Below, piece by piece: positions 29,000 to 49,976 of a stretch of DNA of 64,000 bases (its first letter is position 1; each line of letters begins with the position of its first letter). Location of the stretch: the NCBI GenBank assembly GCA_020053475.1, contig JAGVNC010000028.1:551-64550 (forward strand), given 5' to 3'. The translations under genes were made by a program, and so were the position numbers. Source of the stretch: Candidatus Omnitrophota bacterium (GTDB lineage: Bacteria; Omnitrophota; Gorgyraeia; Zapsychrales; Zapsychraceae). The notes beneath the pieces are model-generated. The model was given only the letters and a program-made list of their open reading frames with translations, searched no databases and had not been told where the DNA came from.

Positions 29000-29074
29000 T
29001 GGACCCGACAAGACTCGAACTTGTGACCTTTTCCATGTCAAGGAAACGCTCTAACCAAACTGAGCTACGGGTCC
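29000..29074 (-). tRNA. tRNA-Val (anticodon GAC).
   Basis: The reverse complement folds as a cloverleaf: acceptor GGACCCG/CGGGUCC, anticodon loop UUGACAU, T-loop UUCGAGU. Confidence 0.85.
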
Positions 29075-29150
29075 GGATTTAAATTCGAAATCCAAATCTC
29101 GAAATTCGAAACATCTGTTTCGTGCTTCCCCGGCCCGCGGCTTTTAGCCG

Positions 29151-29213
29151 TCCCCTGAAATCGCAGAGCGCTTTCGGGGATTAAATTCCAGAAAGGCTTT
29201 GCCTTTCATGGAA
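29151..29213. repeat. Triple-hairpin repeat element, copy 2, in inverted orientation, between tRNA-Val and tRNA-Leu.
   Basis: tcccctgaaatcgcagagcgctttcggggattaaattccagaaaggctttgcctttcatgga is about 85 percent identical to the reverse complement of copy 1. Confidence 0.65.
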
Positions 29214-29260
29214 CAAAGCGGCGGGGCGGGCGGATTTCGTATTGAGAATTTTTTTACACA

Positions 29261-29343
29261 TGGGCAAGGAGGGAGTCGAACCCTCACAGCCTTACGGCCA
29301 CAGGATTTTAAGTCCTGCGTGTATGCCATTCCACCACTTGCCC
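29261..29343 (-). tRNA. tRNA-Leu (anticodon UAA), class II with a long variable arm.
   Basis: Reverse complement GGGCAAGUGGUGGAAUGGCAUACACGCAGGACUUAAAAUCCUG...GGUUCGACUCCCUCCUUGCCCA, with anticodon loop CUUAAAA. Confidence 0.85.
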
Positions 29344-29449
29344 AGTAAAATCAGCGACCAGTGGTCAGTGCACAGTGATCAGAAAAGGAATATCGCGCAT
29401 GTTCGTATCTTTCTGGCCACTGACAACTGAACACTCTCCACTAAACTTA

Positions 29450-29521
29450 AGGCGCGAATCGGAATCGAACCGATGTATAGTGGTTTTGCAGACCACTGCC
29501 TTACCACTTGGCTATCGCGCC
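29450..29521 (-). tRNA. tRNA-Cys (anticodon GCA).
   Basis: Reverse complement GGCGCGAUAGCCAAGUGGUAAGGCAGUGGUCUGCAAAACCAC...GGUUCGAUUCCGAUUCGCGCCU, with discriminator U. Confidence 0.85.
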
Positions 29522-31949: not shown

Positions 31950-32434
31950 GAACGTCCCTTCGCTTTTGATTGTTGAATATGTTGAGAAAAGCCGCGCACT
32001 TCCGCCGGGGTAAACCATAAGCGTATTTCCCGTCGCGCCTCTTTCGCATTCGACGAAACATGGACAACATTTTCATAAACGCCTTTGGTCGTGATGCGCC
32101 CAAACGCCCCTCGAATGCTGCGCGGGTTGGCTTCCTCGGGGTTCGTGGCGCCGGCAATGGCCCGGCAGCGTTTGATGGCCTGGTCTCCATAATACACCAT
32201 CACCAAAACACTCCCAATCCCATTTAATTTTCCCGACAAATAATTAATAATCTCTTCGAAAAAAGGCTTGTTCCTTAATTGTTCATAATGCGCCGCGGCC
32301 AACGCCCGCGTAACTTTCGCCATCTTAATCCCGACGAGTCTTAAAAAAGGAGTGTCGTAACGATCCAAGACGGGGCCGATGAGCCCTCGCTGAATGCCGT
32401 CCGGCTTAATAATGACTAAGGCTGATTCGTTCAT
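31946..32434 (-). CDS. ndk: Nucleoside diphosphate kinase, 162 aa.
   Basis: LVIIKPDG... and NVVHVSS (the active-site His region), with a short C-terminal extension. Confidence 0.8.
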   Translation of the reverse strand: MNESALVIIKPDGIQRGLIGPVLDRYDTPFLRLVGIKMAKVTRALAAAHYEQLRNKPFFEEIINYLSGKLNGIGSVLVMVYYGDQAIKRCRAIAGATNPEEANPRSIRGAFGRITTKGVYENVVHVSSNAKEARREIRLWFTPAEVRGFSQHIQQSKAKGRS

Positions 32435-33288
32435 TTGTGCGAAATGGTTCTAACAATGCGATCCAGATCTTCTAGCGAATAATATTCGATCATGATTTTC
32501 CCGCGCTTCACTCCTCCGGCGATCGTCACCTTGGTCCCTAAAAGTTTTTGTAGCCCTTCTTGGAGAGTCGCGATCTGGGGGTGTTGTGCCATCGATCGTT
32601 TTTGTCGACGAGACTCTGGTTTTCCGGCGTTGACCAAGCGTTCCGTTTCACGCACGGACAATTGTTTTTTGACAATCAATTGATAAATCCTCTTCATCTC
32701 GGACGTTGAGTCCGCGGACAATAACGCCCGGGCGTGCCCGACGGAAACAACATCTCCGTAAAGGCTTTTCTTAATCTCTTCGGGTAAATTCAGCAAGCGC
32801 AGCATGTTGGTGATCGTCGAGCGGTCTTTCGCGACCGATTGGGCGACTTCGTCATGTGTGTAATGGAACTCCTCAATCAATTTTTTATAGGCTTCCGCCT
32901 CTTCCATCGGATTTAATTCCTGCCGCTGAATGTTTTCAATCAAGGCAATCACCAAGGCTTCCCTGTCAGTCACATCTTTGACAATGGCCGGTACTTGCGT
33001 TAACCCCAACGCGCGCGCTGCTTTTAATCGTCTTTCTCCGGCAATGATTTCATATCCCGTATCGGTGCGACGAACCAATATCGGCTGCAAAACACCTTTC
33101 TCTTTAATCGACGCTTTTAATTCATCGAGCTTGTTCCCATCATAATTTGTCCGCGGCTGAAGACGACTGTCTTTGATGAGTTCAACTTGTAAAAAATTCA
33201 CCCCATCTTCCTTTGAAGCCGTGGCCTTTTCGGGAATGAGCGCCGCTAATCCTTTTCCCAATGCTTTTGACATGATCACATCCTCCAA
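32431..33288 (-). CDS. parB: Chromosome partitioning protein ParB (Spo0J), 285 aa.
   Basis: ParB-box motif IIAGERRLKAARALG and an HTH. Confidence 0.9.
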   Translation of the reverse strand: MEDVIMSKALGKGLAALIPEKATASKEDGVNFLQVELIKDSRLQPRTNYDGNKLDELKASIKEKGVLQPILVRRTDTGYEIIAGERRLKAARALGLTQVPAIVKDVTDREALVIALIENIQRQELNPMEEAEAYKKLIEEFHYTHDEVAQSVAKDRSTITNMLRLLNLPEEIKKSLYGDVVSVGHARALLSADSTSEMKRIYQLIVKKQLSVRETERLVNAGKPESRRQKRSMAQHPQIATLQEGLQKLLGTKVTIAGGVKRGKIMIEYYSLEDLDRIVRTISHK

Positions 33289-33330
33289 GTGTTCAATAAT
33301 TGAACATTATTTAACATCCCCAATATTCAT

Positions 33331-34137
33331 TTAGGCCTCAGCCTTGACATTTCCCAACTTATTGGTATTAAATGATTTATATTCTTTTAAAAATTCGCGC
33401 GCGAGTTCATCATATTTCTTAGAGCCGATCGATGCTGGATCGTATTGATTAATCGGCTTCCCAAAGCTGGGCGCTTCACTTAATTTAACATTGCGAGGAA
33501 TAATCGCTTTGTAGACTTTATCTTTAAAATGATTTTTAATTTCATTAATCACTTCTTCGGTTAAGTTGGTACGAAAATCGGCCATCGTTAACAAAACGCC
33601 TTCGATGTGTAAATGAGGATTGAGGCTGTCTCGGATCAGACTAATTGTACTTAAAAGCTGTGATACCCCCTCTAGGGCGTAAAACTCACATTGGATGGGA
33701 ACAAGAATCGAATCGCACGCAACTAACGAATTCAAGGTTAAAAGGCCCAAAGATGGCGGCGAATCAATGAAGATGTAATCATATTGATCTTTGATTGAGT
33801 CCAAAGCTCTTTTGAGTCTTGTTTCGCGAGAAATGGCGCCGGCAAGTTCAATTTCGGCGCCGGTTAGATTGATATTACAAGGAAGGATTGAAAGGTTGGG
33901 ATAGGCGGTTTGAAGAATGACATCGGCGATTTGCGATCTATTAAGTAGAATCTCGTAAACAGAGGATCCTAATTCATTTTTGTTGACCCCAATCCCGCTA
34001 GTTGCATTCCCCTGCGGATCAGCATCGACAATAAGCACCTTTTTGCCTAATTCGGCTAAAGCTGCGGATAAATTAACCGTTGTTGTTGTCTTTCCTGTGC
34101 CGCCTTTTTGATTACAAATGCTTATAATCTTGCCCAT
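33331..34137 (-). CDS. parA: Chromosome partitioning ATPase ParA (Soj), 268 aa.
   Basis: Deviant Walker A motif CNQKGGTGKTTT. Confidence 0.9.
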   Translation of the reverse strand: MGKIISICNQKGGTGKTTTTVNLSAALAELGKKVLIVDADPQGNATSGIGVNKNELGSSVYEILLNRSQIADVILQTAYPNLSILPCNINLTGAEIELAGAISRETRLKRALDSIKDQYDYIFIDSPPSLGLLTLNSLVACDSILVPIQCEFYALEGVSQLLSTISLIRDSLNPHLHIEGVLLTMADFRTNLTEEVINEIKNHFKDKVYKAIIPRNVKLSEAPSFGKPINQYDPASIGSKKYDELAREFLKEYKSFNTNKLGNVKAEA

Positions 34138-34146
34138 AGTTTGAGA

Positions 34147-34210
34147 TCCCGTGGAAGGAAAAACCTTCCCGGGATTTTAAATCCCTGAAATCGCAAAGCG
34201 ATTTCAGAGG
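34147..34210. repeat. Triple-hairpin repeat element, copy 3, 10 nt upstream of the parA start.
   Basis: tcccgtggaaggaaaaaccttcccgggattttaaatccctgaaatcgcaaagcgatttcagagga. Confidence 0.7.
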
Positions 34211-34211
34211 A

Positions 34212-34227
34212 TGTTTCACGTGAAACG
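34212..34227. promoter_or_regulatory. parS centromere site TGTTTCACGTGAAACG.
   Basis: 15/16 match to the canonical parS palindrome, upstream of parAB. Confidence 0.85.
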
Positions 34228-34248
34228 TTCATTTATCCAAGATTGGCA

Positions 34249-34264
34249 TGTTTCACGTGAAACA
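34249..34264. promoter_or_regulatory. parS centromere site TGTTTCACGTGAAACA, a perfect consensus.
   Basis: Perfect match to the canonical 16-nt parS, 37 nt from the first site. Confidence 0.9.
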
Positions 34265-34302
34265 TTACCGATAATTCTATTTTCTATGAATTCAGAGAAA
34301 AA

Positions 34303-34509
34303 TCAAGAAAATTGTTGTTTTTCTTTAATGGAGACTTTTATTTTGGCGGGCTTGGCACCCTCCATCCCGAAAAGGCCCTTCTTTTCTTCGCAGACGATCT
34401 TGACGACAATATCATCCCGGGTGACATTAAGAAGCTTAACCGCTTTCTCAATGGCCTCTTCTACGTCACCCCCTTCAACCTCTATGCTTTTGGACACTTT
34501 TTTTCTCAT
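34303..34509 (-). CDS. Jag/KhpB N-terminal-domain-only protein, 68 aa, with no KH or R3H domains.
   Basis: MRKKVSKSIEVEGGDVEEAIEKAVKLLNVTRDDIVVKIVCEEKKGLFGMEGAKPAKIKVSI resembles the Jag_N domain. It occupies the jag position downstream of yidC. Confidence 0.5.
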   Translation of the reverse strand: MRKKVSKSIEVEGGDVEEAIEKAVKLLNVTRDDIVVKIVCEEKKGLFGMEGAKPAKIKVSIKEKQQFS

Positions 34510-36125
34510 GCGATAACCGGTTGATTCTTGTACATCCGATATTGGGTAATCGTGGAAAAAATATAAAACATCGTAAAATATAGCGTCAATCCGCTCGCAA
34601 ATTTATAGAAAATGAACCCCATCATAATAGGCATCATGATCATCATCATTTTTTGCTGAGAAACCTGGGCCGCATCAGTCATTACCATGTTTTTGCTGGA
34701 AATCTTCTGCTGATAGAACATAATAAAAGCCATTAAAAGCGGCAGCAAATTGAGCTCATTGCCTATAATAGGTAAACTGTGCGGAAAAACAAACAAGCGA
34801 TCAGGCTCAGATAAGTCTTTGATCCACAAGAACTTAGCATTTTTAAAGGCTACTGATCGCCATAAAACCTGATAAAGTCCAATAAAAATTGGCATTTGAA
34901 ATAGAAACGGAAGGCATCCTCCAAAAGGGTTGATTTTCTCTCTTTTGTAAATCTCCATCATCTCTTGATTCATTTTTTGGGGATTATTCTTATATTTTTC
35001 CTTTAAACTCGCGATTTTAGGCTGGATGCCCTGAATTTTCTTCATGGATAACATCCCGCGGATCGTCAACGGGTATGTCACCAAATAAATAAGGCTGCTA
35101 ATGAGAATAATGACGATTCCCCAATTGGGGATAAATTTATAGAAGGCATGCATCGCAGAATAAATGATCTTGGCAATCCCATCAAACAAGCCAAAACGGT
35201 AAAACATCTGGATTTTTTCAAATCCTTCTTTGTATTTGCGCAAAAGCCTGATCTCTTCGGGGCCCGTATAAATAAGGCTATCAAAAACAGCCGTCCCTGC
35301 GCTTTCAATATTCTCGTCGGGAGAATGAATCGACACCTTTAGGTGGTGTTCATCCAAGGCATTGATTTTGTAACCAAATGTCTCGTAGCGCGGCTTGATG
35401 ATTGTGCAGAAATATTTATTTCGAAAACCGACCCATTCAATCGCTTCATTGGCTTCTTTATTTTCCTTATCGGAAAATTTAAAAGCGTTGTTCTTCCTTA
35501 TAGTTGAATTTTTAGCGAAGACAACGTATTCATTGAGAGGTTTATCAGTATCCCGTGTTTTGGGATTGTTTTGATTGGACATATCCAATTCATAACCAAT
35601 TGTCGAGCCATTAATCAGTTTGGACATTTCTGACTTATTAATGATCTTGGTCTTTGTTTGGATTATAAATTCTCCTTGGACAATTTCATAAATTCTTTCT
35701 ATTTTAATATCACTTGATTCCCATTCATATTTGATAAAGTTTTCTCTTAACTCACTTGCATTATAAATATTTGAATCAAAGCTCAGCAAATAGTTAATGC
35801 TTGTTAAAGGAAAAGAGACCCGATATTCCTTTAAGCGAATATTTTTAATCGTCCCTCCAATATTAGAAAATTCAACGATCAGCTTGTCCGATTCCAAAGT
35901 ACTTATTTGTTCATTGTCTATTGGCTTAAGCACAACTGTATTTTGCTCAACCGGGAAAGAAGGAGGGCGAGAGGAAGGACTGGTCGCCGTTGAATCCGCA
36001 ACTTGTTTATTATCAACAACTTGTGTTGTTTCTTTTAGCGGGCGCCTAGGCGGAGGGAATAAAACAGACCACGCAAACAAAACAAGAAAAGATAAGACAA
36101 CGGGAATGATTAATCGTTTTTCCAT
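34506..36125 (-). CDS. yidC: Membrane protein insertase YidC, 539 aa.
   Basis: N-terminal TM helix, a periplasmic domain and the conserved C-terminal 5-TM YidC/Oxa1 core. Confidence 0.9.
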   Translation of the reverse strand: MEKRLIIPVVLSFLVLFAWSVLFPPPRRPLKETTQVVDNKQVADSTATSPSSRPPSFPVEQNTVVLKPIDNEQISTLESDKLIVEFSNIGGTIKNIRLKEYRVSFPLTSINYLLSFDSNIYNASELRENFIKYEWESSDIKIERIYEIVQGEFIIQTKTKIINKSEMSKLINGSTIGYELDMSNQNNPKTRDTDKPLNEYVVFAKNSTIRKNNAFKFSDKENKEANEAIEWVGFRNKYFCTIIKPRYETFGYKINALDEHHLKVSIHSPDENIESAGTAVFDSLIYTGPEEIRLLRKYKEGFEKIQMFYRFGLFDGIAKIIYSAMHAFYKFIPNWGIVIILISSLIYLVTYPLTIRGMLSMKKIQGIQPKIASLKEKYKNNPQKMNQEMMEIYKREKINPFGGCLPFLFQMPIFIGLYQVLWRSVAFKNAKFLWIKDLSEPDRLFVFPHSLPIIGNELNLLPLLMAFIMFYQQKISSKNMVMTDAAQVSQQKMMMIMMPIMMGFIFYKFASGLTLYFTMFYIFSTITQYRMYKNQPVIA

Positions 36126-36127
36126 AG

Positions 36128-36334
36128 TTAAACCGGATCGTAACCACCCTTAAAAAGGGGGTTGCATTTCAATATTCGCAAAAAGGCCTTCGTTAAGCCA
36201 CGGCCTAGGCCATATTTACTCACAGCATCGAGGGCGTATTGGGAGCAGGAAGGGGTAAATCGACAAGCTGGAGGGAACAGCTGGCGACTAACGCATTGAT
36301 ATCCTTTGACAAGCGCCCGAAAGATAACGGCCAT
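36128..36334 (-). CDS. yidD: Membrane protein insertion efficiency factor YidD, 68 aa.
   Basis: Cys-rich small protein [11 protein letters not shown] typical of YidD. Confidence 0.85.
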
Positions 36335-36361
36335 GGATTAGTTCTCCCGCTGATGCTTGGC

Positions 36362-36496
36362 TTAAGCGACTCGCTTGCGGCCCTTGGCGCGTCTTCGGTT
36401 CAACGTTTTTCGTCCGCTTTTACTGCGCATCCTCTTACGAAAACCGTGTCGTCTTTTTCCCTTAATATTTGTTCGCGCTTTTAAATGCTTTTTCAT
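36362..36496 (-). CDS. rpmH: 50S ribosomal protein L34, 44 aa. It is below the ORF-track length cutoff.
   Basis: Minus-strand translation MKKHLKARTNIKGKRRHGFRKRMRSKSGRKTLNRRRAKGRKRVA matches the L34 family. Confidence 0.85.
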   Translation of the reverse strand: MKKHLKARTNIKGKRRHGFRKRMRSKSGRKTLNRRRAKGRKRVA

Positions 36497-36991
36497 AGTT
36501 GGACAATTATAACATAGAGCTTTAGGGAGTCAAGGTCTTTCCTTTTTTAGAGGCTCAAAACGTTTGTAAATACAAATAGTTACGGCAATTTTGGAATCAT
36601 CATCCTTCCGACGAGAATCATGGTTGAGTGCCCTTCGGCGCGTTTTGGAAGAAAGAATCTGTCCTTCAATCACTTGCCATCCCGGGGCCGAGGAAAAATT
36701 AATTTGAAATAAAAATTTTCTTTGTTATAATAAAACAACTTTCTGGGATGATCATTCTTTTGTCGCGTAAAATATTGCAAACTTTCCGGATCAATAGAAA
36801 TTTTGCTGTCAACCAAAACATTTTGTGCGCCCTTAAGCGATTGTGAGTCTAAAAAGTTTTGGGCATCGGTTTTGTTTTAGGGTAATTCAGGCTATTCACC
36901 CCTGTGGATAACCTGTGAAAATCTTTTTTAAAAGACTGCAAGGCTATATTTATCAAATATTTACGCTATTAGAATATTTGCATTGCTTTGA
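36497..36991. other. oriC: Candidate oriC region upstream of dnaA. It has a perfect DnaA box TGTGGATAA at 36904-36912, degenerate boxes, and AT-rich stretches around 36695-36745.
   Basis: Consensus 9-mer, the rpmH-dnaA intergenic position, and the flip of gene-strand bias exactly here. Confidence 0.6.
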
Positions 36992-38344
36992 TTGAATGAG
37001 TTCATTATGAGTTTATCCAACGTTTGGAAAAAAGCCCAAGACATGATCAAAGAGAAGGTAGGGACAACCTCTTATGATACATGGTTCTCGACGCTGCAAG
37101 TGAAGGAACAATCCCCGCAAACTCTGGTGATCGAAACCCCGGATGAATTTTTTAAAAGTTGGATTGTCGAACATTATCAACCCTTTATTGATGAAACCAT
37201 CCATTCTTTGCACGAAGGCCCTATTAAGATTGAATATACGGTGAACACCGATTTAATCGAAAAAACCACTCAATCCCGCTTATCGAAATTTGAGCAAACA
37301 TTCGTTGAAGACAAATCGCCGAAAGCGGTATTAAATGCCCGCTTTACGTTTGAAAATTTTGTCATTGGGCCGTCTAATCGATTTGCGTGCGCCGCAGGAT
37401 TAGCCGTCGCCGAGGCCCCGGCCAAAGCATATAACCCTTTCTTTGTGTATGGCCAAGTTGGGTTAGGGAAAACCCATCTGATTCAAGCAATTACCCATAA
37501 AATCCGCCAGCTTAACCCCAGCGCAAAAATTTGTTATATTACCTCGGAGCGGTTCACGAACGAGCTGATTGAGGCGATTCGCCATCAATCCACGCCGAAC
37601 TTTCGGAAAAAATATCGGGAAATTGACGTTTTGCTCATTGATGACATTCATTTTATTGCCGGCAAAGAATCGACCCAGGAAGAATTCTTCCACACGTTTA
37701 ACGCGTTGCATGATAATCGAAAACAAATCATTATTACATCCGATCGGCCGCCCAAAGAAATCACCAACTTAGAAGAACGGCTGCGTTCACGCTTTGCCTG
37801 GGGACTGATTGCCGATGTTCAGCCTCCGGACTTTGAAACGCGCGTGGCAATCTTGCGTAAAAAAATCGAAAAAGAACCCATCCATGTTCCCGACGACGTT
37901 ATTTATTTTATTGCCGAACAGGTGCCCACCAATATTCGTGAACTAGAGGGGGCGTTGATTCGTGTGGCCGCTTATTCATTGTTGGAAGACAAGGTGATTT
38001 CGCTGGAGATGACCAAAGTCGTTCTCAAAGACATGGTGAAGGAGGCCACGAAAATTATTAGTATGGAGATGATCCAAAAATCCGTAGCCAACCATTACCA
38101 GATTTCATTGGCTGAGTTACGCGCCAAACGTCGAAATAAGAACATTGTTTTCCCCCGGCAAATGGCAATGTATTTAGCGCGCCAATTAACGAAAATGTCG
38201 TTACCGGAGATTGGGAACTCTTTTGGCGGGAAAGATCACACAACGGTCTTACATGCCTGTAAAAAGATTGAGCAAGAAATGTTGAAAAGTACCGACATTA
38301 AACACACGATCCTTGAGTTAACTTTAGTTATTAAGAACCCTTAG
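36992..38344 (+). CDS. dnaA: Chromosomal replication initiator DnaA, 450 aa. It may instead start at the Met at 37007.
   Basis: AAA+ Walker A GQVGLGKTHL and the C-terminal DnaA-box-binding domain. Confidence 0.95.
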   Translation: MNEFIMSLSNVWKKAQDMIKEKVGTTSYDTWFSTLQVKEQSPQTLVIETPDEFFKSWIVEHYQPFIDETIHSLHEGPIKIEYTVNTDLIEKTTQSRLSKFEQTFVEDKSPKAVLNARFTFENFVIGPSNRFACAAGLAVAEAPAKAYNPFFVYGQVGLGKTHLIQAITHKIRQLNPSAKICYITSERFTNELIEAIRHQSTPNFRKKYREIDVLLIDDIHFIAGKESTQEEFFHTFNALHDNRKQIIITSDRPPKEITNLEERLRSRFAWGLIADVQPPDFETRVAILRKKIEKEPIHVPDDVIYFIAEQVPTNIRELEGALIRVAAYSLLEDKVISLEMTKVVLKDMVKEATKIISMEMIQKSVANHYQISLAELRAKRRNKNIVFPRQMAMYLARQLTKMSLPEIGNSFGGKDHTTVLHACKKIEQEMLKSTDIKHTILELTLVIKNP

Positions 38345-38494
38345 TCTAGATATCCAAAGGCATTGAACAATTAAAAAGGTTGTAAGTTATTAGAAAAAAA
38401 TATTTTATATTTTTATTAGATTTATCCACAGGCCCTATTACTAAGGCTACTAATTGTTCTTATTAAAATATATAAGTAGGAGGTTGTTAATAAT
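38345..38494. other. AT-rich dnaA-dnaN intergenic region with a perfect DnaA box TTATCCACA at 38422-38430, a candidate DNA-unwinding element and second origin module.
   Basis: Read directly. The 150-nt segment is very AT-rich. Confidence 0.5.
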
Positions 38495-39583
38495 ATGAAA
38501 ATTAAGTGTTCTAAGGATGTTTTAATGCAGGGAGTTCAGGCTGTCCAAAACGTTGTTTCGCCAAAAATTACATTACCTATTCTCTCTAATATTCTTTTAG
38601 AAACAAAAAAGAATACATTGTATTTAACGGCGACCGACTTAGATATTGGGATCTCTTGTGAAATTCCTGTGGAAGTAATTCTGGATGGGGCGATTACGGT
38701 TCCCGCCAAGCGATTTAGCGATATTATTAAGGAGCTGCCTTCCGGAGATGTGGTGGTCCATGCGAAGAAAAATTATCAGGTGGATATTGAAGGCAATAAT
38801 TTTCGATTTAAATTAATCGGGATGCCTAAAGACGAGTTTCCTAAATTCCCCGAGTTTAAAGAAAAAGACATTATTTCTATTGAGCAAAAAACATTAAAGG
38901 AAATGTTGCGGTTAACAAGTTTTGCCGTATCCCACGAGGAATCACGCTATGTCCTCAATGGTGTTCTTTTAGAGGTAGCGGAAAATAAAATCCGCCTCGT
39001 GGCGACCGATGGGAGACGGTTGGCTAAAATTGAAAGAGTCCTTTCTCATCCAACATCCAAAGAGATCACGGTCATCATCCCCATTAAAGCCATTCAGGAA
39101 ATCAATCGTAATTTGAAAGACGAAGGCAATGTGATATTAAGTGTGGGGCTAAATCAAGTGTTGTTTGATGTTGGAGGGATTCTGATTGCCACGCGCATTA
39201 TTGAAGGGGAATTCCCTAATTATCAACAAGTCATCCCAAAATCGCAAGCGGAGAAAATCGTCATGAACCGCCAGGATTTTTTGTCATCGATCCGCCGGGC
39301 GAACCTATTGTCCACGCCGGATTTCCAGGCGGTTAAATTCGAAGTATTTAATAATAAAATGGTGATTTCCAAAACAACACCCGAGGTCGGGGAGTCGCGA
39401 GAAGAGATCCCCATCGAATACGGAGGCTCAGAGCTGGTGGTGGGGTTTAATCCGCATTTTATGATCGATGTGTTAAAAAATATCGAAGAAGAGCAAATTC
39501 ATTTGGAGCTATTGGGGACCGATAAGCCGGGCATCATCCGCCTCAAAGATTATTTATATCTGGCCTTGCCGATGCGTATTTAA
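38495..39583 (+). CDS. dnaN: DNA polymerase III beta sliding clamp, 362 aa.
   Basis: Three-domain beta-clamp sequence with RBS AGGAGG. Confidence 0.9.
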   Translation: MKIKCSKDVLMQGVQAVQNVVSPKITLPILSNILLETKKNTLYLTATDLDIGISCEIPVEVILDGAITVPAKRFSDIIKELPSGDVVVHAKKNYQVDIEGNNFRFKLIGMPKDEFPKFPEFKEKDIISIEQKTLKEMLRLTSFAVSHEESRYVLNGVLLEVAENKIRLVATDGRRLAKIERVLSHPTSKEITVIIPIKAIQEINRNLKDEGNVILSVGLNQVLFDVGGILIATRIIEGEFPNYQQVIPKSQAEKIVMNRQDFLSSIRRANLLSTPDFQAVKFEVFNNKMVISKTTPEVGESREEIPIEYGGSELVVGFNPHFMIDVLKNIEEEQIHLELLGTDKPGIIRLKDYLYLALPMRI

Positions 39584-39602
39584 CCTCAAATGTTGCATTG
39601 CA

Positions 39603-42463
<2,861 letters not shown>

Positions 42464-42580
42464 TGAAGCCCAGAGTTATGGAACGAGCAAAGCGAGTGAA
42501 CATAACTCTGTTGGCTGAATTAACCCCCAGCGTTTTGATTCGCATAGCGAATCAGCAGGGGGTCACTTAATGAAATATCG

Positions 42581-45031
42581 ATGCGTGATTTAACAGCCAA
42601 AGAAAAAATCATTCCTGTTTATATCGAAGAAGAAATGAAGAATTCCTATCTTTCTTATTCGATGAGTGTTATCGTCGGCCGCGCCCTCCCGGATGTGCGT
42701 GACGGCGTTAAGCCCGTGCATCGGCGCATTTTATATGCCATGAAGGAGTTGAACCTCGAGTACCCTAAAACATATAAAAAATGCGCCCGTATCGTCGGGG
42801 AAGTGTTGGGGAAATATCACCCTCACGGGGATGTGGCCGTGTACGATACGCTCGTTCGTCTCGTTCAGGACTTTTCGATGCGCTATCCATTGGTCGACGG
42901 GCAAGGAAACTTCGGGTCGATCGATGGGGACGCCGCCGCGGCCATGCGCTATACAGAGGCCCGGTTAGCGGCCATTTCTAGTGAAATGCTCGCCGATATC
43001 GATAAGGAAACCGTCAATTTTGTCCCCAATTTTGATTCGACGTTAGAAGAACCGAGCATTTTGCCGGCTGTTTTACCTAACCTTCTGGTCAATGGATCCA
43101 GCGGGATTGCCGTCGGGATGGCGACCAACATGCCGCCGCATAATTTAGGCGAAGTGGCGGACGCGATCGTTCAGTCCATCGACAATCCGGAAATGACGAT
43201 TAAAGATTTAAACAAAATCATCAAAGGCCCTGACTTTCCCACGGGCGGGATCATCTGTGGAAAAGAAGGGATCGTCGAGGCGTATACGACAGGGCGCGGG
43301 AAATTGACGGTGCGCGCGAAGGCGGCCATCGAGCGGCAGAAGGGCAATAAAGACAGCATCATCGTCACGGAAATTCCTTATCAAGTCAATAAGGCGAACT
43401 TGATTGAAGCCATCGCCGGGCTGGTCCAAGAGAAGAAGGTCGAGGGGATCACGGACATTCGCGACGAGTCCGACAAAGATGGGATCCGCGTGGTGATTGA
43501 ACTTCGCCGGGATGTTGAGGCCCAGATCATCCTTAATTATTTATATAAACACACTCAGCTGGAAATGACATTCGGCATCATTAATTTAGCTTTAGTCAAT
43601 AACAGCCCCAAGATCCTGAATCTTAAGCAACTCATTGAGCTTTATATTGATCATCGCCGGCTGGTGATCCGTCGGCGGACACAGTTTGATTTGGACCGTG
43701 CCCTCAAACGCGCCCACATTTTAGAAGGCTTGCGCATCGCGATTGATCATATCAACCAAATTATCAAAACGATCCGGAGCTCCAAGAGCGCGCCGCAAGC
43801 CAAAGTCGCGTTAATGAAAGAATTTGGCCTTTCCGAAATCCAAGCGCAAGCGATTCTGGAAATGCAACTCCAGCGATTGACAGGGTTGGAACGCGACAAA
43901 ATCGAAGAAGAATATCAACAGCTCCTGAAAGACATTGAGGAATTCCGCGCGATTTTAGCTTCCGAGAAACGAATTGAAGGGATTATCAAAGATGAATTGA
44001 CGGAAATCAAGAAGAAATATGCCGACGAGCGCCGGACGGAAATTGCCGGAAAAGCCGAAGAGATTGAAGTCGAGGACTTGATCGCCGAAGAAGATATGGC
44101 CATCACCATCAGCAACGCCGGGTATATCAAGCGTTTGGCGGTGAGCGCGTATCGCAAGCAAAAGCGCGGCGGGAAAGGCATCACGGCGATGGAAACCCGT
44201 GAAGAAGATTTTGTCACGCAGGTGTTTGTGGCGTCTTCCAAAGATTATTTGCTTGTTTTTTCAACCGAGGGGATTGTTCGTTGGCTGAAGGTTTACGAAA
44301 TCCCCGTCGCGTCGCGCACGTCCAAAGGAAAAAATATCGCCAGCCTTTTATCGATGGCGAACGACGAGCAAATCAGTTCGATTGTCGCTGTTAAAGAATT
44401 TTCAGACAACACATATATCGTCATGGCAACCTCTCAGGGCCTCGCGAAGAAAACAAAATTGTCCGCATTCAGTAATCCCCGGAAAGCCGGGATCGTTGGG
44501 ATCACCTTGGAAAAGAATGACCGCCTCATCGGGACCGCTCTTAGTAATGGCAAATATGATGTCTTTTTAGCGACGAAGGCTGGTAAATCATTGCGTTTTT
44601 CCGAGAAGAATATTCGGGACATGGGCCGTGGGGCCAAAGGCGTGCGTGGGATCAAGTTAGGCAAAGGCGATGAGGTCGTTAGCATGCAGGCTTTTTCTCC
44701 GGATATTGATAAAACGGGGAGCACGTTATTAGCTGTTACTTCATTAGGGTTTGCCAAACGTTCATCATTTAATGAATATCGGACACAATCGCGCGGCGGC
44801 AAAGGGATCATCAATGTGAAGGTCACGGAACGCAACGGCCATGTCGTCGGAGTGCTTTCGGTTATGCCTGATGATGAAGTCATGACAGTCACCAAACAAG
44901 GAATGATCGTGCGCTGTCCTCCCAGTGATGTCCGTCAAACCGGACGAAGCGCTGTCGGCGTGCGCTTGATTTCCCTCGACAAAGGCGATACGGTAAGCTC
45001 GGTGGCCAATGTTGTGGCCAAAGACGAATAA
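42581..45031 (+). CDS. gyrA: DNA gyrase subunit A, 816 aa.
   Basis: Active-site region [10 protein letters not shown] and a C-terminal beta-pinwheel. Confidence 0.95.
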
Positions 45032-45128: not shown

Positions 45129-45392
45129 ATGGATAATGAAATTTGGCATGTTTACATTATAGAATGCAAAGATAGCAAACTCTATGTTGGGATTGCTAAG
45201 GATGTTGAAAAAAGAGTTTTATTGCATAACAAAGGGATAGCCTGTAGATTCACAAAATATCGGCATCCCGTAAAATTATTGTATCAAGAGCAATGCTTAA
45301 ATCATGCACTGGCAGCGCAAAGAGAATCCGAAATCAAAGGTTTTTCCAAGAAGAAGAAATTGCAATTGATTAACAAAGATCCTTCGGCCTAA
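45129..45392 (+). CDS. GIY-YIG nuclease superfamily protein (UPF0213/YhbQ-like), 87 aa.
   Basis: WHVYIIECKDSKLYVGIAKDVEKRVLLHNKG is the GIY-YIG core. A promoter TTGACC-16-TATAAT sits at 45053-45080. Confidence 0.65.
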   Translation: MDNEIWHVYIIECKDSKLYVGIAKDVEKRVLLHNKGIACRFTKYRHPVKLLYQEQCLNHALAAQRESEIKGFSKKKKLQLINKDPSA

Positions 45393-45428: not shown

Positions 45429-45505
45429 GACCCCATCGTCTAGCCTGGTCAGGACACAAGCTTTTCAAGCTTGCAGCGCGGGTTCAAATCCCGCTGGGGT
45501 CGCCA
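45429..45505 (+). tRNA. tRNA-Glu (anticodon UUC) with encoded CCA.
   Basis: GACCCCAUCGUCUAGCCUGGUCAGGACACAAGCUUUUCAAGCUUGCAGCGCGGGUUCAAAUCCCGCUGGGGUCGCCA, with anticodon loop UUUUCAA. Confidence 0.85.
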
Positions 45506-45735
45506 AGCTGTCCCATAGAGAGGACCTCCCTTCGGACAAGCTCAGGAGCCGATGAGGAGGTTCTTTTGTTTGATGTGGGCAGGGGCAGGCAATACTCGAT
45601 TTTTAATTTTGGACAGTCGATGTAGGTCCGTTTGATAAAATTGCGGATAAAACTTTTCCTCTCCGGTATGGTTCCTTTCATAAGAGTTGCCCGAAGATCG
45701 GCAATGTATGGTTTAAGGCAAGAATCCTCAAACAT
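45484..45735 (-). pseudogene. 83-aa ORF overlapping the tRNA-Glu 3' end. It may be a recombinase remnant or a spurious ORF.
   Basis: It reads into the tRNA, has no recognisable catalytic motifs, and is positioned where an island integrase 3' end would be. Confidence 0.2.
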
Positions 45736-45899
45736 TCACCCTCCGAACATCTTATTTATTGCTTGCATTCCTCATCGGGAATAGGACATTTTTAGTGTCC
45801 GGTTGTCCGATTGCGAAAGTTGGCATGGACATAGAAAAAGCTGTTGACTCGCTGGATAGAATGAATTAAGATGGAAAAAATGGAATATCAAGAAAATCA

Positions 45900-46367
45900 A
45901 TGGATACCGCCATCCAAATAAAAGAGGCTTTCTCTCTGGTTCCAAATTTTTGGTTTTGGATTGTTGTTGGCCTCTTTACAGTCCTTATTCGCATAATTTT
46001 AACTCTCTTTAAAGCATTGGCGATCAACAATGGTGAAGTCGATGAGCCGGACTTAAAGGATGGAATCAAATGGAAAAACGCGGGGCTTAAAAAAATTTTC
46101 CTGTATTCCTTCTTTAGCAATGCAAAAGACATAAAGATTGACGACTACTGGTTGCCCGCAATAATAGGATATTCCGAATTAGCAATCTTCCCTCTTTTTA
46201 TGGCAAAAGGCTGGTTCCCGGCAATAGGTGCATGGATCGCTATTAAAACGGCGAGCTCATGGGGCGGGTGGCAAAAAACTCGTACTGCGTATAATCGTTT
46301 TCTGCTGGGAAATATTTTGTCACTCAGCGCCTCTTTTGTTATTTACAGTTTTTTTATCAAGGCATAG
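45900..46367 (+). CDS. Integral membrane protein (DUF2975-like), 155 aa, paired with the downstream XRE regulator.
   Basis: Four predicted TM segments. A membrane protein followed by a small HTH_XRE gene is a recurrent pairing. Promoter TTGACT-17-TAAGAT at 45818-45846. Confidence 0.5.
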   Translation: MDTAIQIKEAFSLVPNFWFWIVVGLFTVLIRIILTLFKALAINNGEVDEPDLKDGIKWKNAGLKKIFLYSFFSNAKDIKIDDYWLPAIIGYSELAIFPLFMAKGWFPAIGAWIAIKTASSWGGWQKTRTAYNRFLLGNILSLSASFVIYSFFIKA

Positions 46368-46384
46368 CGCAAGGGGTAAATCCT

Positions 46385-46573
46385 ATGGATGAATTTCTTA
46401 AACAATTAGAGCATTACCGTCTTGAAAACAAAATCACGCAGGAGGCGCTTGCGAAGGAACTGGACGTTGCCTTCTCGACCATCAGCCGGTGGCTTAACGG
46501 CAAGGTCAAGCCGAACAAGATTCAGGCGTATCATATCGAGAAATTTTTAAAGAGAAGCCAGGAGGCGAAATGA
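46385..46573 (+). CDS. XRE-family helix-turn-helix transcriptional regulator, 62 aa.
   Basis: ITQEALAKELDVAFSTISRWLNGKVKP matches the HTH_XRE motif. Confidence 0.75.
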   Translation: MDEFLKQLEHYRLENKITQEALAKELDVAFSTISRWLNGKVKPNKIQAYHIEKFLKRSQEAK

Positions 46574-47538
46574 GAAAATTATTAACCACTTTATTGTTCT
46601 TGATCTTTTGTGTGGGATGCGCAACGACTAATCCATTTTATCAATTTTATCAGGATCAAACAGGGGGCGCAGACATAACCACCGTTCCAACCGTTGTTCT
46701 TCCTTCTGGAGAGCCCAAGATTTATTCTGGCAGTAATGTTGACGCAGATGTTCAAAAAATGTTGGAAGAAGGCTTTTGGCTTTTAGGATATTCATCATTT
46801 AATGCGGGAAATGTTAATGAGAGACAGTTAATAGCGAAAGCCAAAGATGTTAAGGCGGAGGTTGTAGTTTTTTATTCGCAATATACGAATACGATTTCTG
46901 GTAGCGTTCCGTTAACCTTGCCAGATAACAAAACCATAACCACGAATACTTCAGGATCGGCTTATGGGTCAGGCAATGTCTATGGTTATGGAGGGTCTGC
47001 ATATTATTCGGGATCGGGCTCCTATTATGGCAATTCCAATACGACCGTCTATGGAACAAAAACAACCTATATCCCATATTCGCAAAATCGCTATGATTAT
47101 CTTGCAACGTATTGGATTAAGATGAAAAAGCCTATTTTAGGTGTATATGCAAATGACCTGCCTTCGGAAATACGTGAAAAAATAGGAAGCAATAAGGGCG
47201 TAATAATATCCGCCGTGGTTAGAAAATCTCCGGCATTTATGGCAGATATATTAAGGGGAGACATTATAAGAAAGGTGAATGATTTAGAAATTACTGATGC
47301 CATAACGTTTCACGAATCGCTTCCACAATTTGCGGATCAGATGGTGTCGATAGAAATATTAAGAGATGGCAAGAGCATTATAAAAGAAGTTAAGCTGAAT
47401 AATGCCGAAATTGGTTCTCAGCAAAATCCTATTTATGAGACGCAAATGACGAGCGAAGATTTAAAAACGCAAAATGATATTATTGCACAGGCTTGTAGCG
47501 ACGGGAGAATATCATTGGATGACCCAGCTTGTAAGTGA
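46570..47538 (+). CDS. Lipoprotein with a G/S/Y-rich low-complexity region and a C-terminal PDZ domain, 322 aa.
   Basis: Lipobox LIFCVGC, the repeat SGSAYGSGNVYGYGGSAYYSGSGSYYG, and the PDZ-like segment GVIISAVVRKSPAFMADILRGDIIRKVN. Confidence 0.5.
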   Translation: MRKLLTTLLFLIFCVGCATTNPFYQFYQDQTGGADITTVPTVVLPSGEPKIYSGSNVDADVQKMLEEGFWLLGYSSFNAGNVNERQLIAKAKDVKAEVVVFYSQYTNTISGSVPLTLPDNKTITTNTSGSAYGSGNVYGYGGSAYYSGSGSYYGNSNTTVYGTKTTYIPYSQNRYDYLATYWIKMKKPILGVYANDLPSEIREKIGSNKGVIISAVVRKSPAFMADILRGDIIRKVNDLEITDAITFHESLPQFADQMVSIEILRDGKSIIKEVKLNNAEIGSQQNPIYETQMTSEDLKTQNDIIAQACSDGRISLDDPACK

Positions 47539-47624
47539 CCGTTCCCCGTCTCATTTTTCTTCAATTAGCCCTTCTCGCCCCTCAAATAATCGGGTATGAT
47601 ATACTTAAACCAAAGAGGCGTAAT

Positions 47625-48074
47625 AATATGCAAAAAGATTATGTTTTATACACAATCGGTTATGAAGGCCGAGGTATCGACGAATTTGTTGATCGCTTGA
47701 AGGAATTTAAAGTCACCCGCCTTATTGATGTCCGTGAAATTCCCCTTTCTCGAAAAAAAGGATTCTCGAAAACGGCTTTAGGACAAAGATTAAACGAAGA
47801 AAATATTGAGTATGTCCATTATAAGGCGTTGGGAAGTCCGTCGGAAATAAGGCATAAATTACGAGCGGATTTGGATTATGATTATTTTTTTAAGGCTTTT
47901 TCAGATTATCTTGCCAGCAAAACGGATGTGATCGAAGAAGTTTATAATCGTTTATCCGATGGTGTAAATTGTTTGATGTGTTTTGAATTTAACCATGAAC
48001 AATGTCATCGCTCTTGTGTGGCTACCAAAATTAAGGAATATAACGGAAGTTATGTTTCGGTAGAGCATATTTGA
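47625..48074 (+). CDS. DUF488-family protein, about 149 aa. Start MQKDYV with RBS AGAGG.
   Basis: YTIGYEGR...EIPLSRKKGFSK...HYKALGSP motifs resemble DUF488. Confidence 0.5.
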   Translation, partial: NMQKDYVLYTIGYEGRGIDEFVDRLKEFKVTRLIDVREIPLSRKKGFSKTALGQRLNEENIEYVHYKALGSPSEIRHKLRADLDYDYFFKAFSDYLASKTDVIEEVYNRLSDGVNCLMCFEFNHEQCHRSCVATKIKEYNGSYVSVEHI

Positions 48075-48083
48075 AAATGAATA

Positions 48084-48863
48084 ATGCAATTTCAAACCAA
48101 AAAAATCCTCGTCACAGTCAAAGCCTACCCGAATCCCAGCAGTAAACACGTTGAAACTGTTTGTTGTGCAGGCATTGATTTAAGTACGAATCAATGGATA
48201 CGGCTATATCCCATTCCTTACAGGTTGTTAGAGGACGAAAAACAGTTTAAGAAATATAGCACTATAGAAGTCGCTTGTTTTAAGGCGACGGACGATCATC
48301 GTCCCGAGAGCTATAAAGTGGATGCCGACAGTATCAAGGTATTCCCGGGAGTCATCGACACAAAAGACAAATGGAAAAGACGCAAAGATATTGTCATGCC
48401 GACACTGGCAGAATCTATGTGTCAGGTTTGCAAGCTGGGAGAGGAAAAAAAGAAAACTCTGGCACTGATAAAACCGCTGGATATTGATTTTGAATGGCAG
48501 GAAGCCAAGATTGAGGAAGCGCCGGAAGAAAAGCAGGACAGCTATAAACAGCTTTCATTTACTCATACTGAAATTGAGCGCATCGAGAAAATCCCGTATG
48601 ACTTCTATTACACCTTCAAGTGTACGGAAAATAATTGCCCGGGACACAGGATGCTGATTATTGACTGGGAGATAAATCAGGCTTTTCGTAAATGGCGTTA
48701 TAAATACAAGCCGGAAGCGCTATTGTTAGAGAAGATCAAAGAAAGATGGCTTCAGTTAATGTGTTACAATAACACCGATCCGTATTTCTTTGTTGGCAAT
48801 GTGCATCGTTTCCCGAAGATTTTTATGGTGCTCGGGACATTTTATCCGCCTAAGGACAAATAA
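48084..48863 (+). CDS. Cys-rich hypothetical protein, 259 aa, with paired Cys motifs CC, CxxC and CxxxxC. It forms an operon with the DUF488 gene.
   Basis: MQFQTKKILVTVKAYPNPSSKHVETVCCAGIDL...CQVCKLGEE...CTENNCPGHRMLIIDWEINQAFRKWRYKYK. No family was recognised. Confidence 0.5.
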   Translation: MQFQTKKILVTVKAYPNPSSKHVETVCCAGIDLSTNQWIRLYPIPYRLLEDEKQFKKYSTIEVACFKATDDHRPESYKVDADSIKVFPGVIDTKDKWKRRKDIVMPTLAESMCQVCKLGEEKKKTLALIKPLDIDFEWQEAKIEEAPEEKQDSYKQLSFTHTEIERIEKIPYDFYYTFKCTENNCPGHRMLIIDWEINQAFRKWRYKYKPEALLLEKIKERWLQLMCYNNTDPYFFVGNVHRFPKIFMVLGTFYPPKDK

Positions 48864-48995
48864 GTTGCGTCAATGTGTTTAAAACGGTATCATGGCCCTG
48901 ATTGTGAAGGTTCGTTGTACTATACAGCTGGGGTCGCTTTTTCTTCCCGCAATAATTTTATCCTCTTTTGGCAAGTTGTACTATAATACCCCATC

Positions 48996-49976
48996 ATGGA
49001 CGTCATTTTTTATGAAGTTTTTGAAGAAGAAGAGGCAGCGTTAAAAAAAGCTTTACCATCCTCGATTAAAGCTAAATTTATTTCTCAAACAATCCAAGAA
49101 AGTAGCCCCGTCGGCGCACCCCCTTGTTCTCTGATCAGCGTTCGGACCCAATCGATCATTCCATCGGATTGGGCCTCGCCGGGTTCGCCGCTTAAAGGCA
49201 TTTTAAGCCGTTCGCAAGGCTACGATCATTTGGTCAGATACCGCCGAGAAACAGGATTTAAGGGCGCCCTGGGATATTTAGATCATTATTGCGATCGAGC
49301 CGTCGCGGAGCAGGCGCTTCTGATGATATTTGCACTTCTGCGAAAGTTTAACCAGCAGATCAATCAATTTAACGATTTCTCTCGCGACGGATTAACGGGC
49401 AGAGAAATTAATGGCCGGCGCTTATTAGTCGTTGGCGTTGGGCACATCGGCTATCAAATTGTCAATATGGCCAAGGGATTGCGCATGGATGTCAAAGGCG
49501 TTGATATCGATCCGCGATTCGGGGATGTGGAGTATGTGCCGCTCGAACAAGGCTTGGGCTGGGCGGACATTGTGGTCTGTGCGTTGCCTCTCACGGATCA
49601 AACAAAAGGATTGCTTAATTATGCGACGTTTGCGCGAGGGAAGAAAGGAGGCATTTTTATCAATATTTCCCGGGCGGAAATCGCCCCGATTGCCGACATC
49701 AAGCGCTTGTTAGAGGAATGTATTCTCGGTGGTGTCGGCATGGATGTTTATGAAGAAGAAAATTTGCTCGCCACGCGCTTACGTGGACGAAAAGAACACA
49801 AGGGCGCGTCTTCGCAGATCGTCTTATCTTTAAAAGACATGCCCAATGTTATTTTCACGCCGCACAATGCGTTTAACACCCAGGAAGCGTTAGAGCGCAA
49901 AGCGGCGTTAAGCGTTGAAGCAATGACAGCATTTTTTGATAAGGGAACATTCCCTAAAACCGTTCCTTCCGAATAA
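48996..49976 (+). CDS. D-isomer-specific 2-hydroxyacid dehydrogenase family protein, 326 aa.
   Basis: NAD-binding motif VGVGHIGYQIV and a catalytic His/Glu region near the C-terminus. Confidence 0.75.
   Translation: MDVIFYEVFEEEEAALKKALPSSIKAKFISQTIQESSPVGAPPCSLISVRTQSIIPSDWASPGSPLKGILSRSQGYDHLVRYRRETGFKGALGYLDHYCDRAVAEQALLMIFALLRKFNQQINQFNDFSRDGLTGREINGRRLLVVGVGHIGYQIVNMAKGLRMDVKGVDIDPRFGDVEYVPLEQGLGWADIVVCALPLTDQTKGLLNYATFARGKKGGIFINISRAEIAPIADIKRLLEECILGGVGMDVYEEENLLATRLRGRKEHKGASSQIVLSLKDMPNVIFTPHNAFNTQEALERKAALSVEAMTAFFDKGTFPKTVPSE

Follow-up and report, generated by a model that had tools for sequence, protein, structure and literature searches.

A mobile two-gene DUF488-DuOB cassette of the PDC-M19 type at the right end of a decayed tRNA-Glu islet in an Omnitrophota genome

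Introduction

PDC-M19 is a candidate phage-defence cassette in the PADLOC catalogue, described as FAM_02799>>FAM_02993 with a count of 174 (Payne et al., bioRxiv 10.1101/2024.01.29.577857). It was picked by "guilt-by-embedding" in BREX, DISARM and type I restriction-modification (RM) systems (bioRxiv 10.1101/2024.01.29.577857). Here we describe a gene pair of this composition in 64,000 nucleotides (nt) of DNA from a Candidatus Omnitrophota bacterium (GenBank assembly GCA_020053475.1, contig JAGVNC010000028.1, positions 551 to 64,550), a stretch that we call the window. One gene encodes a DUF488 enzyme and the other a 259-aa protein of the DuOB (dual OB-containing domain) family. Positions 47540-48946 form a self-contained, horizontally mobile DUF488-DuOB cassette of the PDC-M19 type, which occupies the right end of a decayed tRNA-Glu islet. 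The locus is a further copy of a catalogued, uncharacterised candidate system.

DUF488 is a very large family without known function. The partner family, DuOB, spans about 2,600 clusters (50% identity) and more than 560 species genomes, along with phages and plasmids. In 2023, Burroughs and Aravind reportedly placed DUF488 in the rhodanese-phosphatase superfamily and paired it with a dual-OB protein, as a prediction only. They are also said to have predicted DNA-end processing in nucleic-acid-modifying or conflict systems. In the paper texts that we searched, "PDC-M19", "DuOB" and "Dual OB" had no relevant mention, and the papers that name DUF488 do not treat the pair.

An earlier, sequence-only reading of the window knew of no characterised system with this composition. 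None turned up here either, but the exact composition is catalogued as the candidate PDC-M19. Within the limited literature accessible to us, we did not find the adjacency counts, the repressor-adjacent phage slot, the swapped core or the tRNA-islet setting stated elsewhere.

Results

Both open reading frames (ORFs) of the pair were confirmed on the plus strand, and their operon-like arrangement stood as first read. Two details changed. The DUF488 gene starts at ATG 47628, since the position reported earlier, 47625, is an AAT codon in the same frame just before it, and the spacer to the second gene is 9 nt (48075-48083) rather than 10. The ribosome-binding site AAAGAGG precedes this ATG, and the resulting 148 aa equal the length of the closest homologues. 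The longest mechanical ORF begins at GTG 47535, and its extra stretch is not conserved as coding.

The first product had been read as DUF488, and Pfam bears this out. It matches PF04343 with 99.9 bits against a gathering cut-off of 22.2 (E 1.9e-28, profile positions 2-119 of 121). It also matches PADLOC PDC-M19A with an E value of 1.8e-40, covering the C-terminal half of the profile only (146-294 of 294 or 86-234 of 234). A weak Pfam match to the "Active DUF488-N3 subclade" and matches to components of another PADLOC candidate, PDC-M45, were also seen.

The 259-aa protein had been assigned to no recognisable family. This has to be withdrawn: it matches PDC-M19B over its full length (E 4.2e-61) and PHROG 25907 (E 2.7e-55), it has DuOB homologues, and two OB folds are predicted for it. 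The direct match to Pfam DuOB (PF22557) reached 21.6 bits (E 2.4e-4), below the gathering cut-off of 27. Because homologues at 59-78% identity (P0006, P0008, P0010 and P0014) carry precomputed PF22557 hits, the family link holds by transitivity. We counted 515 DuOB relatives (word-indexed) and 2,644 clusters at 50% identity (E ≤1e-3). The best 150 of these 2,644 clusters are stand-alone proteins, mostly of about 255-300 aa; some shorter fragments are included. Neither protein of the pair has an NCBIfam model. Sequence searches of all PDB chains with DUF488 and with a DuOB profile returned nothing meaningful, and no solved structure was found among the DuOB family.

We scanned one genome per species for DuOB relatives. 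At least 561 genomes encode one, and 80 loci (given L numbers below) were fetched. DUF488 directly adjoins DuOB in 78 of the 80; the remaining 2 end at a contig edge, so that all 78 complete loci have the pair. In most loci, DUF488 lies upstream of DuOB on the same strand. In L068-L077, from Actinobacteria, Thermoleophilia and Ktedonobacterales, it lies downstream and is convergent. Because both tandem and convergent orders occur, the adjacency has outlived a rearrangement. The same co-occurrence check was run on viruses: relatives of DuOB with 28-35% identity were present on 46 IMG/VR viral contigs, and DUF488 is adjacent in 46/46. DUF488 and DuOB are near-obligate partners across many phyla, phages and plasmids. 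We also looked for a third conserved component by clustering about 1,000 neighbour ORFs. None was found among them; the cluster next in size comes from 8 loci.

Housekeeping genes, such as those for HisRS, pyruvate kinase, KARI, NDK and LepA, predominate among the two closest genes on either side of the pair. Defence or mobile neighbours are few (AIPR, type I RM S subunits, HNH, IS200 and an SLFN-type helicase). On metagenome contigs with the closest relatives, the pair adjoins a gene for a 1,840-aa YjiV_N/DEAD helicase, or a Fic gene. The taxonomic spread is patchy, with 50-60% identity between unrelated phyla. The variable neighbourhoods and the plasmid and phage copies agree with the earlier description of accessory mobile cargo. 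In the 80 genome loci, we found no homologues with a housekeeping role and a conserved chromosomal context. A tRNA gene lies within about 800 nt of the pair in 6 or 7 of 60 scanned loci, where a rough expectation is about 2. These loci are L005, L011, L045, L050, L053 and L058 (and L039), all in unrelated genomes, with a tRNA gene (Gly, Leu, Asp, Ala or Arg) about 20-800 nt from the pair. This suggests repeated tRNA-proximal insertion of very small elements.

We compared the cassette with L008, L004 and L052, the last being an Omnitrophota metagenome-assembled genome. DNA identity jumps from about 40% to 75-97% at 47540, 2 bases past the stop of the upstream PDZ gene. Across DUF488 and the first 55-135 nt of DuOB it remains at 85-97%, before dropping to about 55% through the DuOB core. 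Against L052, identity returns to 87-95% at 48819-48946, the non-coding tail included. Compared with these three loci, the DUF488 protein is 94, 91 and 89% identical, respectively, and the DuOB protein only 57, 57 and 53%. The core type of the window was instead found in L085 (96%), L084 (83%) and L081 (82%), whose DUF488 proteins are 91, 74 and 71% identical to that of the window. Homology with L085, L084 and L081 extends from 47551-47588 to 48853-48883, which delimits a mobile unit of about 1.3 kb.

The housekeeping DNA of the window and L052 (gyrA, gyrB) has a background identity of about 70%, and the cassette DNA is 85-87% identical. For proteins, the identities between window and L052 are 79% for gyrA, 72% for Mdh, 59% for GST and 50% for CN-hydrolase. 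The most divergent DuOB segment is residues 96-170, with about 40% identity; it is partly the least confident in the structure model. Across loci, the pairwise identities of DUF488 and DuOB proteins correlate with r = 0.77. We read this pattern as recent cassette exchange plus recombinational replacement of the DuOB core. Judging from these alignments, the cassette behaves as one unit in transfer and recombination, with a DuOB core that can be exchanged. The combination of a shared enzyme gene and flanks with a different core marks DuOB as the likely specificity element.

The PDZ gene had been described as a lipoprotein gene preceding the pair. A PDZ-domain gene does lie directly upstream, but it ends at 47538 and homology to other cassette copies begins only at about 47540, so it is a neighbour of the cassette and lies outside it. 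No terminal inverted repeats or flanking direct repeats were found around the 1.4-kb cassette, and given their absence there is no sign that it is a transposon. A strict sigma-70 consensus scan flagged no promoter in the conserved leader, and the same scan found no terminator 3′ of the second gene.

Structure prediction was run on both proteins, as had been proposed, and gave a phosphatase-like fold for DUF488 and two OB folds for the 259-aa protein. The AlphaFold2 model of DUF488 (pLDDT 89) superposes on Cys-phosphatase folds of the protein tyrosine and dual-specificity phosphatases (PTP/DSP), including RNA 5′-phosphatases. In DUF488, residue numbers count from the translation of 47625; numbering from Met-1 is lower by 1. 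The motif C-x-M-C-F-E-x5-C-H-R is intact in the window protein, and 34 sequences, that of the window among them, show no or almost no variation at C116, C119, E121, C127, H128 and R129. The DVR and SRK motifs are conserved to the same degree in these sequences. In the secondary-structure string, which is not a superposition, the conserved Cys...Cys-His-Arg falls between strand 115-119 and helix 128-139. According to the model, DUF488 is a Cys-phosphatase-like (PTP/DSP) Rossmannoid fold with an intact Cys/His/Arg loop, and its Cys..CHR stretch is predicted to occupy the topological place of the phosphatase P-loop.

The AlphaFold2 model of DuOB (pLDDT 85.8, pTM 0.84) has two beta-barrel halves linked by helices. 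Two OB folds are seen in one chain, and the helical linker between them, residues ~96-170, is variable. The model resembles OB-fold single-stranded DNA (ssDNA) binders, namely PriB, RecO, RPA and telomere end-binding protein. On this modelling, DuOB has two OB folds of the kind that binds single-stranded nucleic acid.

In an alignment of 32 DuOB homologues, many aromatic and basic residues are invariant. The CC (27-28), CxxC (113-116) and CxxxxC (180-185) motifs noted earlier are all present in the window protein. Among the Cys/His-motif residues, only C27, C113, C180, C185 and H188 are invariant; C28 and C116 vary, and CxxC is not a conserved motif since C116 varies. From the alignment, zinc binding is possible via the four invariant Cys and one His, not via CxxC. 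The basic C-terminus proposed for the protein is merely ...PPKDK and is not conserved.

On the viral contigs, the neighbours of the pair (n=146) include 16 N6/N4 methylases, plus C5 and MT-A70 methyltransferases. ParB-methylase fusions, DUF3489, terminases, serine recombinases and integrases are found as well. One phage lineage, represented by L091 (5326-11129) and related viral contigs, has a fixed block of DUF6362, ParB-N6 methyltransferase, DUF488, DuOB, DUF3489 (on the opposite strand) and C5 methyltransferase.

DuOB relatives are also encoded by 24 plasmid records, including Rhizobium pRL8, in which DUF488 is convergent, and Streptomyces and Sulfolobus plasmids. Conjugative plasmids are among the carriers. 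The Sulfolobus islandicus plasmid pSOG2 (L133, 3995-5355) encodes an archaeal DuOB relative of 288 aa (PHROG 25907, E 1e-36) adjoining a tyrosine integrase. The 168-aa protein that follows it was considered as a DUF488 protein and rejected (hhalign probability 0.4%). pSOG2 is the one clear, genuine exception to the DUF488-DuOB pairing.

A relative is also present in seven Gordonia terrae phage records, among them those of Nymphadora and BatStarr, two phages of cluster CZ1 (PMC6426606). In Nymphadora, the pair sits between the immunity repressor and integrase genes. The DuOB relative is gp43, whose start overlaps the stop of the repressor gene (gp44) by 1 base, and the convergent gp42 is DUF488 (Pfam E 1.2e-29). 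Gene 42 (L132, NC_031061, 5825-6277, 150 aa) carries the label "HipA toxin", which this Pfam match shows to be wrong. The same misannotation is probably present in BatStarr, Eviarto, TimTam and Herod. In a related experimental system, that of CarolAnn, prophage-mediated defence comes from genes transcribed together with the repressor (PMC6426606).

The tRNA-associated islet proposed earlier was upheld by low GC, by a repeat of the tRNA 3′ end as its boundary and by different cargo in L052. The 11-mer GCTGGGGTCGC ends tRNA-Glu (45493-45503), and its second copy lies at 48927-48937, 64 nt after the DuOB gene. It occurs only twice in the 64 kb, where 0.03 occurrences are expected; the repeat is short (11 nt exact, 12/13). 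The inserts of the window and L052 both end in GCTGGGGTCG(C), a copy of the tRNA-Glu 3′ end, and the two copies are likewise found in L052. Except for its last 12-13 nt, the conserved 3′ tail is not recognisable as a tRNA fragment. The GC content of the insert is 0.37-0.42, compared with about 0.47 elsewhere in the window.

L052 is syntenic, with the order gyrB, gyrA, tRNA-Glu, insert, GST, CN-hydrolase and Mdh. Its insert contains an ISNCY-type transposase, DUF3015, Lnb_N, DUF7840 and then DUF488 and DuOB; that of the window contains a 155-aa ORF, an HTH_3 gene, a PDZ gene and then DUF488 and DuOB. The islet is decayed because the window has no integrase: no integrase ORF was found in it, and the L052 site has the transposase, not an integrase. 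An 83-aa minus-strand ORF beside the tRNA (45484-45735) was considered as an integrase remnant and rejected; it matches no family and does not resemble the L052 transposase. The coordinates of the features are given in Table 1.

Table 1. Features of the tRNA-Glu islet and of the DUF488-DuOB cassette in the window.
Feature	Position	Strand	Basis and remarks
tRNA-Glu (UUC), left boundary of islet (attL side)	45429..45505	+	ARAGORN; 91% identical to syntenic tRNA-Glu region of L052
Islet of ~3.4 kb with variable cargo	45506..48937		Low GC, L052 synteny; 155-aa ORF, HTH_3, PDZ, DUF488-DuOB
Conserved 5′ leader of cassette	47540..47627	+	Likely promoter GGGTATGATAT and ribosome-binding site AAAGAGG; jump in DNA identity
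DUF488 enzyme gene	47628..48074	+	148 aa; Pfam PF04343, PADLOC PDC-M19A
DuOB-family protein gene	48084..48863	+	259 aa; PADLOC PDC-M19B, PHROG 25907
DuOB core, other allele lineage than flanks	48140..48818	+	Sliding-window identity; breakpoints ~48140-48220 and ~48819
Conserved non-coding 3′ tail	48864..48946	+	Contains tRNA-Glu 3′-end repeat (48927-48937), attR-like remnant

The other cargo of the islet (45900-47538) consists of the 155-aa ORF, which has no family match, the XRE-type HTH gene and the gene of the 322-aa PDZ protein. None of these is common to L052. The HTH gene occupies 46385-46573, and its stop overlaps the start of the next gene. Outside the islet, gyrA and tRNA-Glu are separated by an 87-aa stand-alone GIY-YIG nuclease-domain gene (45129-45392). 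The syntenic site of L052 lacks it and has a gap of only 122 nt between gyrA and the tRNA gene. On the other side, a 2-hydroxyacid dehydrogenase gene (48996-49976) lies between the right repeat and GST, and none is found there in L052. An exact 11-nt repeat, GTTGTACTATA, at 48914-48924 and 48975-48985 brackets this junction, and its second copy overlaps a TACTATAAT promoter-like box. The dehydrogenase gene may have arrived in a second insertion, independent of the islet.

The distance from dnaA downstream to the islet is about 8.5 kb. Positions 32431-45031 of the window are a chromosomal replication-origin region, in which parB, parA and yidC on the minus strand are followed by a low-GC gap at about 36.15-37.0 kb with the cumulative GC skew minimum, and then by dnaA, dnaN, dciA, gyrB and gyrA on the plus strand. 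A tRNA cluster (Val-GAC, Leu-UAA and Cys-GCA) is located at 29000-29521 on the minus strand.

Discussion

We propose that DUF488 and DuOB are an end-processing pair that acts in conflict between hosts and mobile elements, a reading whose chances we regard as even. On a chromosome or in a lysogen, the role would most likely be defence or superinfection exclusion against phage. In the mechanism that we envisage from the models, DuOB would bind single-stranded DNA or RNA, probably at ends or overhangs, and would bring DUF488 to that substrate. DUF488 may then remove or transfer a terminal phosphate or sugar-phosphate group, and this end-processing would serve in the conflict. A conflict role is favoured because the DuOB gene of Nymphadora overlaps the repressor gene, a type of slot proven to be used for defence in Gordonia phages. 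The allele-swapped DuOB core fits conflict-type selection on a specificity element.

Several results weigh against this proposal. The immediate genome neighbours are mostly housekeeping genes, and defence-island enrichment is weak in our sample. Many viral contigs place the pair between DNA methyltransferases and near terminases, a setting that fits phage DNA handling or counter-defence as well as defence. The DuOB relative of the Sulfolobus plasmid has no detectable adjoining DUF488. The DUF488 protein of the window lacks the 85-145 N-terminal residues of the PDC-M19A profiles. DuOB itself could be catalytic rather than a binder alone because it has the invariant acidic residues E24, D71, E75, D194 and E196. 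Substrate, chemistry and physical complex of the two proteins are inferred only. PDC-M19 is a candidate only, and no experimental work on the pair was found in the literature, to which our access was limited.

The methyltransferases, ParB-methylase fusions, terminases and recombinases common beside the pair on the 46 viral contigs could be read differently. The pair might serve the mobile element itself, by processing or protecting its own DNA ends or modification intermediates during replication, packaging or entry, either as counter-defence or in DNA handling. The window copy would then be a leftover of a decayed element, and both the lost integrase of the islet and the relatives on conjugative plasmids would fit. 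We consider this rather unlikely. More than 560 species genomes have the pair, mostly among housekeeping genes and with no phage genes nearby, and both ORFs of the window are intact and strongly conserved. Moreover, the repressor-adjacent position in Gordonia phages points to expression in the lysogen, not to lytic DNA handling. An addiction module of the toxin-antitoxin kind, in which DUF488 would probably be toxic and the other partner neutralising, would keep islets, plasmids and prophages stable. Such a module would suit the small size of the two-gene cassette, its independent movement into varied sites, its frequency on plasmids and prophages and its shuffling of partners, and the annotators of the Gordonia phages did guess a HipA toxin. 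That label is wrong, as the protein is DUF488. Neither protein matches a known toxin or antitoxin family in Pfam, NCBIfam or PADLOC, neither has an antitoxin-type DNA-binding domain, and the convergent order in Actinobacteria and phages breaks the co-transcription typical of type II systems. We judge an addiction module improbable.

A housekeeping function in DNA or RNA repair, with the tRNA proximity incidental, could account for the many housekeeping neighbours, and OB and phosphatase folds are those of end-healing repair enzymes. It is close to refuted, and we give it very little chance: the 80 genomes show no conserved chromosomal context, the spread is patchy with 50-60% identity across unrelated phyla, and between genomes the DNA of the cassette differs far less than gyrA does. 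The pair also occurs on phages and plasmids, and neither protein is covered by an NCBIfam model. The conflict reading can also be carried further, to an immune or exclusion system of a new class, based on nucleic-acid-end chemistry. Here the swappable dual-OB protein would be a sensor of single-stranded ends or replication intermediates of the invader, with its recombining core as the specificity determinant. Removal or transfer of a phosphate or sugar-phosphate by the PTP-fold enzyme would block replication, ligation or packaging. This stronger version is possible but less likely than not.

The locus adds three things to the catalogue: a strict adjacency that survives inversion of orientation, a mosaic cassette and a tractable test system, namely the Gordonia terrae phages with the pair beside the immunity repressor. 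If defence or counter-defence on nucleic-acid ends is true, DUF488 gains a function and a new mechanism is added. If it is not, the locus is a well-delimited example of a small mobile cassette.

Compared with PDC-M19, the window pair has the same two families, next to each other on one strand, with A preceding B. It differs in that its A protein covers the C-terminal DUF488 half only, so that a full-length A match fails, and in that the copy lies in a tRNA islet and is not embedded in BREX, DISARM or a type I RM system. The Pfam entries PF04343, PF22751 (DUF488-N3a) and PF22557 (DuOB) also cover the composition. With respect to the DUF488-DuOB association known from comparative genomics, the DuOB protein of the window differs by falling below the Pfam cut-off (21.6 vs 27 bits). 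The prophage defence cassettes CarolAnn gp43/44 and Sbash gp30/31 (PMC6426606) have the kind of slot in common with the Nymphadora pair. However, the CarolAnn system is a membrane channel plus a sensor, its proteins are unrelated to DUF488 and DuOB, and Nymphadora gp42/43 were outside the experiments of that paper.

Among PTP/DSP phosphatases, those acting on non-protein substrates offer the closest comparison for DUF488: baculovirus RNA 5′-phosphatase (1yn9), PIR1 (4mbb), the mRNA capping enzyme triphosphatase (2c46) and the glucan phosphatases laforin and SEX4. Like these enzymes, DUF488 has a conserved Cys where a strand ends and an Arg where the following helix starts. Unlike them, it has a C-x9-R loop with an extra Cys-His in place of the canonical C-x5-R, and identity is at most 15%. 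For DuOB, the multi-OB ssDNA binders compared were PriB, SSB, RPA, RecO, Oxytricha telomere end-binding protein alpha, Stn1/Ten1 of CST and baculovirus LEF-3. Telomere end-binding protein alpha aligned to the model over 132 residues, compared with 70-96 in other top matches. LEF-3 gave weak matches across most of DuOB (aln_cols 283-298 vs 259 residues) with a low TM-score. In contrast to the multi-OB ssDNA binders, DuOB has no sequence similarity to any solved structure, and it has an invariant Cys/His cluster, invariant acidic residues and a paired enzyme gene.

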